The translations under genes were made by a program, and so were the position numbers. Shown here in pieces: positions 61,667 through 61,722 of a DNA stretch of 64,000 bases. Position 1 is the stretch's first letter. Each line of letters opens with the position of its first letter. The DNA is taken from assembly GCF_050920415.1 (NCBI RefSeq), contig NZ_CP169309.1; one strand, 5' to 3'. A model generated the notes under the pieces. The model was not told the origin of the DNA. It was given only the letters and a program-made list of their open reading frames with translations, and searched no databases. The DNA comes from Escherichia coli (lineage in GTDB: Bacteria > Pseudomonadota > Gammaproteobacteria > Enterobacterales > Enterobacteriaceae).

Positions 61667-61681
61667 TCTCTTTGATGTACC

Positions 61682-61708
61682 AGCAGGGGTAACCCCCTGC
61701 TTTATTCC
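61682..61708 (+). terminator. Intrinsic terminator/attenuator between ecpA and ecpB
   Basis: AGCAGGGG-taac-CCCCTGCT stem followed by TTATTCC; sits 16 bp after the ecpA stop. Confidence 0.55.
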
Positions 61709-61722
61709 TGGACGGAATTGTT

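Follow-up and report, generated by a model that had tools for sequence, protein, structure and literature searches.

[quoted passage not shown] A leaky terminator or a protective hairpin after the major pilin gene is a textbook route to pilin excess in chaperone-usher operons, and the interval between ecpA and ecpB holds a candidate for such an element. We analysed this interval in a window of 64,000 nucleotides, a term used here for the whole stretch of E. coli DNA studied, and compared it with ecp loci of other Enterobacterales.

The ecpA–ecpB interval and its hairpin

The names ecpR, ecpA, ecpB and ecpC are those given by RefSeq to matching DNA, identical or at 98% identity, in some 5,000 complete E. 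coli genomes, and the homologues of EcpA carry Pfam PF16449 and EcpA as their given name. The operon promoter lies upstream of ecpR (PMC10038029). Positions 61667 to 61722 are exactly the 56-bp interval between ecpA and ecpB, and the region is laid out as follows (all features on the plus strand):

60414–61004, plus: ecpR (matA), LuxR-type regulator, gene 1 of the operon (ORF list; RefSeq annotation of matching DNA)
61040–61054, plus: small hairpin GGGAC-AUCAU-GUCCU, about 25 nt 5' of the ecpA ATG, a weak candidate for a 5' protective hairpin
61079–61666, plus: ecpA (matB), major pilin gene, TGA stop at 61664–61666 (ORF list, RefSeq annotation, PF16449 homologues)
61667–61681, plus: unstructured 15-nt spacer from the ecpA stop to the hairpin, different in sequence between genera (sequence, fold)
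61682–61689, plus: hairpin 5' arm AGCAGGGG (fold; covaries with the 3' arm)
61690–61693, plus: hairpin loop, UAAC in the window strain and hypervariable within E. coli (fold, allele comparison)
61694–61701, plus: hairpin 3' arm CCCCUGCU (fold; covaries with the 5' arm)
61702–61709, plus: interrupted U tract UUAUUCCU, where transcript 3' ends would be expected (sequence; T enrichment in orthologues)
61710–61716, plus: GGACGGA, Shine-Dalgarno-like sequence of ecpB, its GGA at 61714–61716 lying 6 nt 5' of the ATG (sequence)
61723–62391, plus: ecpB, chaperone gene, the first gene dependent on read-through (ORF list, RefSeq annotation)
from about 62417, plus: ecpC (ORF list, RefSeq annotation)

About 310 nt upstream of ecpR, at 60081–60107, lies a motif TTCCT-N17-TTCCT, which we take to resemble published EcpR binding boxes. 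Matches to the ecp region fell on plasmid-typed records in 13 of about 5,000 cases, and a few genomes carry two copies.

The hairpin AGCAGGGG-UAAC-CCCCUGCU (61682–61701) has a stem of 8 bp, six of them G-C pairs, and a 4-nt loop. Folded alone it reaches -14.5 kcal/mol, which supplies the free-energy calculation proposed in a preliminary description of this DNA. Directly 3' of the stem runs the tail TTATTCCT (61702–61709), with five T in eight nucleotides, broken by an A and by CC. That description had placed a stable GC stem and a T-rich tract in the 56-bp gap after the pilin gene, and both are present at the exact coordinates and on the sense strand, the tract being interrupted.

Taken as a single sequence, the evidence for the hairpin is suggestive, short of overwhelming. 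The 71-nt fold has z = -2.4, with 4 of 200 shuffles folding equally well, and a single hairpin as good appeared in none of 30 shuffles of the gap. Across both strands of the 64-kb window, a loose definition of hairpin plus tail returns 21 sites; hairpins of -14 kcal/mol or lower with at least five T in eight number five to six, among which the ecpA–ecpB site ranks fifth.

In the minimum free-energy fold, a weak second hairpin, AUUCC-UGGAC-GGAAU, occupies 61704–61718, with AUUCC (61704–61708) pairing to GGAAU (61714–61718). One GGA sits in its loop and the other, likely the ecpB Shine-Dalgarno sequence, in its stem. The arrangement resembles that of a CsrA site and is specific to E. coli, being absent from other genera.

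Conservation and variation of the hairpin

To compare the interval across species, 20 EcpA proteins were aligned, 49 ecpA loci were taken from bacterial contigs at one genome per species, and the ecpA stop and ecpB start were located in each. This gave 47 distinct ecpA–ecpB gaps (the window plus 46 loci), 44 of them usable. Two loci were left out before alignment, one for an unreliable ecpB start (L048) and one for a disrupted hairpin (L027), and the long gap of L004 was kept, trimmed to its first 70 nt.

A GC-rich hairpin stands at the equivalent place, about 14–30 nt 3' of the ecpA stop, in 41 of the 44 usable gaps, with energies of about -10 to -22 kcal/mol. The genera that bear it include Klebsiella, Raoultella, Enterobacter, Citrobacter, Phytobacter, Kosakonia, Pluralibacter, Serratia, Morganella, Rahnella and Phaseolibacter. 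Its stem arms by taxon include:

E. coli: AGCAGGGG/CCCCUGCU
Serratia marcescens and Symbiopectobacterium: GGCGGG/CCCGCC
Morganella: GGGCAG/CUGCCC
Kosakonia: GGAGCG/CGCUCC
an uncultured enterobacterium: GGGUGGGCAA/UUGCUCACCC

The three usable gaps in which no hairpin was found belong to two Tatumella loci (L039 and L041, 31 nt) and to the second paralogue of Pantoea sp. 1.19 (L045). The hairpin is thus widespread, short of universal, in ecp operons.

Gap length also varies. The hairpin-less gaps of Tatumella and of the Pantoea paralogue are short (31–48 nt), and two gaps are long compared with the usual 60 nt or so: 256 nt in Klebsiella indica (L004) and 185 nt in Serratia grimesii (L027). Both long gaps contain extra strongly structured DNA beside or within the hairpin, possibly small mobile repeats.

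The 41 hairpin-bearing gaps were aligned with MAFFT on sequence only, with no structure fitting, and RNAalifold recovered the helix from this alignment. Projected onto it, the eight stem pairs of the window are paired in 93.7% of cells, against 57–70% in a control with the 3' partners slid by 1–3 columns. Seven of the eight pairs show changes on both sides. Compensatory cells number 30, with 4.6 expected, these cells not being phylogenetically independent of one another, and none of 500 shuffles reached any of five pairing measures. Moreover, G·U cells are far more frequent in the stem than A·C cells (27 versus 7), which indicates that the constraint acts on the sense-strand RNA rather than on DNA or an antisense RNA. 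Judged by sequence comparison, cross-species conservation and covariation together place the predicted hairpin well beyond chance.

The single-stranded sequence of spacer and flanks is not conserved between genera. What does recur is an enrichment of T on one side of the stem: the eight nucleotides 3' of it contain 4.7 T on average (59%), compared with 2.1 in the eight nucleotides 5' of it and a T content of 27% elsewhere in the gap. At least four T in the eight positions after the stem are found in 35 of the 41 gaps, and Rahnella, Symbiopectobacterium, one Kosakonia and others reach seven to nine T in ten. In several orthologues seven to nine T follow one another unbroken, and these have, as predicted from their sequence, the architecture of a canonical terminator.

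Within E. coli, the loop varies in sequence, length and C-run (UAAC in the window, and GCCA, UAGCC, UACC and UAGCCC; loci L001 and L051–L055), with all of these alleles at about -15 kcal/mol, and the 8-bp stem is identical in every allele but one. A constant stem with a freely varying loop is the pattern expected where only the helix matters, and counts against a loop-specific ligand. The allele of the window is itself rare: of 4,971 matching records, 7 reach 99% identity or more over 131 nt.

The exceptional allele (L056) carries a T-to-A change in the 3' arm, CCCCAGCU, which places an A·A mismatch in the stem and weakens the hairpin from about -15 kcal/mol to some -9.9 kcal/mol. A 53-mer containing the change is matched exactly in 295 of 5,426 complete E. 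coli genomes; among the 25 matches listed, many are labelled O157:H7, and the remainder have no serotype in their names. ECP has been described in the O157:H7 lineage, so a strong hairpin is not essential. A further variant was observed in a bovine E. coli strain (L050, NZ_AP042480.1), in which IS421, an IS4-like element, is inserted in the 3' arm of the hairpin at about 2568–3735 of the locus; beyond it ecpB-E are missing, and rayT and yafL are found instead.

A terminator-type hairpin within the operon

The architecture is that of an intrinsic terminator located inside an operon, and the imperfect U tract fits leakiness. The GC-rich stem-loop falls within the usual dimensions of intrinsic terminators (a stem of about 5–14 bp and a loop of 3–8 nt), and the RNA structure is kept in relatives. 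With canonical terminators it shares the GC-rich stem, the tetraloop and the U-rich stretch immediately 3' on the sense strand. A U-rich tract of 7–9 nt is given as the norm in a passage of PMC3993855, whereas the E. coli ecp tract is interrupted and has five U in eight. Unlike canonical terminators, the ecp hairpin also stands inside an operon, with the next start codon 21 nt further on, and full termination there would silence essential assembly genes.

The best explanation, and one that we consider probable, is that a constitutive terminator-type hairpin yields an excess of pilin mRNA. Mechanistically, the 8-bp GC-rich stem would form on the sense transcript as soon as this is made, and at the interrupted U tract some polymerases would release the transcript and others would go on into ecpB-E. 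The hairpin would then block 3'-to-5' exonucleases, both on the terminated transcripts and on those later cut downstream. Through termination and protection, the pilin mRNA would become more plentiful and longer-lived than the mRNA for the chaperone and usher, an excess that would match the need for far more pilin than assembly proteins. We infer partial termination, 3'-end protection and an ecpA:ecpB mRNA ratio above 1.

How strongly such a hairpin would terminate was approached with a rough terminator d score. The E. coli alleles score about 2–12, which is marginal, the O157 allele -18, the trp attenuator 30 and the long-U orthologues 50–61, on an approximate d'Aubenton-Carafa-type formula that gave rrnB T1, as entered, a negative value and serves only to rank ecp alleles and orthologues. 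The E. coli U tract is poor (five U in eight, with the A and CC breaks), and termination there could be very weak.

A simple promoter scan detected no promoter-like site within ecpA or within the 21 nt that separate the hairpin from ecpB, and its only downstream match on the sense strand (61817–61844) lies inside ecpB, after the start codon. The downstream genes are reported to be expressed from upstream promoters (PMC10038029, PMC10117834). An evolution experiment yielded an IS insertion directly behind ecpR that activated the operon and gave ecpD-dependent phenotypes (PMC10117834), so transcription must pass the hairpin. The preliminary description had proposed partial termination leading to excess pilin transcript. 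The terminator architecture, the imperfect U tract and the lack of a detectable separate promoter for the downstream genes support that proposal, and the part that assigns the excess to termination is not separable from 3'-end stabilisation.

[quoted passage not shown] The supplementary tables of Dar & Sorek 2018 hold no ecp entries. In the literature searched on ecpA/matB terminators and transcripts the hairpin is undescribed, and Pouttu 2001, Martinez-Santos 2012 and Lehti 2012/2013 may mention it.

The antisense entries led to a separate observation. On the minus strand, at 61433–61465, lies a terminator-like hairpin antisense to ecpA, with a 13-bp stem followed by TTTTTT. The Term-seq 3' end at MG1655 position 310323, labelled 'antisense ecpA' in supplementary file 1 of Adams 2021 (PMC7815308), has exactly this sequence, which indicates that an antisense transcript ends inside ecpA. 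The antisense hairpin is a feature of E. coli that other genera have not retained.

The term attenuator, which the preliminary description had used, does not apply in its regulated sense. The probability of the hairpin pairs is 0.95–0.98 (about 0.97) with 20 to 300 nt of upstream RNA, and also with downstream RNA included. The hairpin thus forms in every context, leaving no antiterminator alternative, so it is constitutive rather than a regulated attenuator. The leader attenuators of trp, his and thr resemble it in placing a terminator hairpin ahead of downstream structural genes, but they possess a mutually exclusive antiterminator fold and lie in a 5' leader, whereas the ecp hairpin has no competing fold and is intercistronic, between genes 2 and 3 of the operon. 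A regulated attenuator was rejected on these two grounds.

Alternative readings and meaning for the operon

Could the hairpin act as a pure 3'-end stabiliser? It would then provide no useful termination; an endonuclease would cut downstream, exonucleases would be halted at the stem and the ecpA segment would outlive ecpB-E, as in malE-malF. Differential decay through protective 3' hairpins is documented (PMC5927463), and a passage of PMC5962669 citing Lehti et al. 2013 reports that ecpA mRNA is processed and that EcpR/MatA and growth conditions govern the stability of the product. The weak U tract of E. coli points the same way, as does the Serratia proteamaculans/quinivorans group, where the hairpin is present but a U tract is nearly absent (two T in eight in two gaps, four in two others); in this group a stabiliser role may be favoured, and stabilisation alone is possibly enough in some lineages. 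Against stabilisation as the whole account, an exonuclease barrier needs no U tract, yet the 3'-only T enrichment is conserved in most genera and extends to long T runs in several. Termination and stabilisation are, besides, not mutually exclusive. We regard a purely protective hairpin as rather unlikely. Both malE-malF and the cfaAB genes of CFA/I fimbriae resemble ecp in having a stable hairpin after a highly expressed cistron and unequal mRNA stoichiometry (PMC5927463), but the malE-malF element is a REP repeat with no U tract, whereas the ecp hairpin is single-copy and has a conserved U-rich tail.

Three other readings assign the hairpin to something else entirely. In one, it is the core of a trans-acting small RNA cut from the gap downstream of the pilin gene, on the model of the experimentally characterised FimR2 (PMC9723502), which binds CsrA and is processed by RNase E out of the fimA-fimI gap. 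In MG1655 the annotation places FimR2 in the corresponding gap of the type 1 pilus operon, and the ecp gap lies at the same operon position: both are directly after the major pilin gene of a chaperone-usher operon and provide hairpin-containing intercistronic RNA, stable in the case of ecp, where two GGA motifs follow just downstream (61710–61716). FimR2, however, binds CsrA through GGA motifs and lacks a U tract; the ecp hairpin possesses one, and its loop is free of GGA and hypervariable within E. coli. A GGA in the hairpin loop and a conserved sequence, as expected of a FimR2-like RNA, are both absent. The unconserved single-stranded flanks argue in the same direction. An Rfam scan of 59000–64000 at E up to 1 placed no family at the hairpin, the sole match being a chance-level GcvB elsewhere. 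Release of the ecp hairpin as a discrete, stable, trans-acting RNA, in the manner of FimR2, is very unlikely, and its being the core of such an RNA is in our judgement most unlikely. In a milder version of the idea, stem alleles particular to a lineage may retune the ratio of pilin to machinery, one example being the A·A mismatch that appears fixed in O157:H7. The second reading has the hairpin mainly set ecpB translation, through ribosome or CsrA access, given that it lies about 20 nt upstream of the start and that the second hairpin at 61704–61718 overlaps the Shine-Dalgarno sequence, with one GGA looped and one paired. A GGA-containing, CGGAYTGAAT-like box ahead of ecpB is indeed conserved in Enterobacteriaceae gaps, but the second hairpin is weak and confined to E. 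coli, other genera differ in sequence there, and the element that is conserved, the GC hairpin with its U tail, is too distant to occlude the start codon; this too we hold to be highly improbable. In the last, the element is a chance palindrome, a REP-like repeat or a DNA-level protein-binding site with no RNA role. The single-sequence z of -2.4 is not extreme, and one strain carries IS421 within the 3' arm. Yet the position is kept in more than 10 genera with compensatory changes, and the stems differ between genera, unlike the site of a specific DNA-binding protein. A REP/BIME repeat was rejected on the fixed position across genera and on the palindrome being single-copy, with one match in the 64-kb window at up to 3 mismatches; a DNA-level palindrome was rejected on the G·U/A·C asymmetry and the one-sided T tract. 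With covariation added, these observations have already largely refuted such an origin, which appears extremely unlikely.

For the terminator-type hairpin, the papBA operon offers the closest comparison in layout. The two operons share the order regulator, major pilin, hairpin, assembly genes, with the promoter upstream of the regulator; in ecp, as in papBA, co-transcribed regulator and pilin genes are followed by a terminator-type hairpin (promoter per PMC10038029). According to a passage of PMC5927463 summarising Båga et al. 1988, an RNase E cut precedes the 5' hairpin of the papBA pilin mRNA, and the 3' end of this mRNA is formed by a terminator that resists RNases. In both systems the pilin mRNA would thus end in a stable terminator-type hairpin, a processed and stabler pilin mRNA is reported (in the passages cited here), and a small hairpin closely precedes the pilin start codon, the one in ecp being a tentative assignment. 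They differ in that there is no sequence similarity between them and that EcpR is LuxR-type, not PapB-type; processing of ecp at the level of RNase E is suggested by analogy.

The small ecp hairpin in question (61040–61054) recurs in Klebsiella, Raoultella, Phytobacter and Citrobacter, the stems differing between genera (GGGAC/GUCCC, GGGCG/CGCC and GGGUG/CGCCC). It is weak, and the entire ecpR–ecpA gap is no more stably folded than its shuffles (z = +0.44); MAFFT left the hairpin out of register in this gap. It could protect the 5' end of the processed ecpA mRNA, or it could act as a weak terminator behind ecpR; its Raoultella counterpart is followed by a stretch rich in T.

That the U tract is conserved yet imperfect suggests that partial, not full, termination has been selected. 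Under a terminator-type or protective role, the stem-weakening CCCCAGCU allele would be expected to give either more read-through or an ecpA mRNA of lower stability in the O157:H7 lineage, and it provides a ready-made natural test. Were a FimR2-like release true after all, the production of common pili would be coupled, alongside EcpR, to a post-transcriptional signal directed, for example, at motility. As a terminator-type element, the ecp hairpin would be a new, well-conserved case of a long-known design of fimbrial operons, and would leave the understanding of such operons unchanged. For the ecp/mat operon itself, a hairpin conserved at the RNA level across many Enterobacterales would provide a concrete cis element for the reported post-transcriptional control of ECP.
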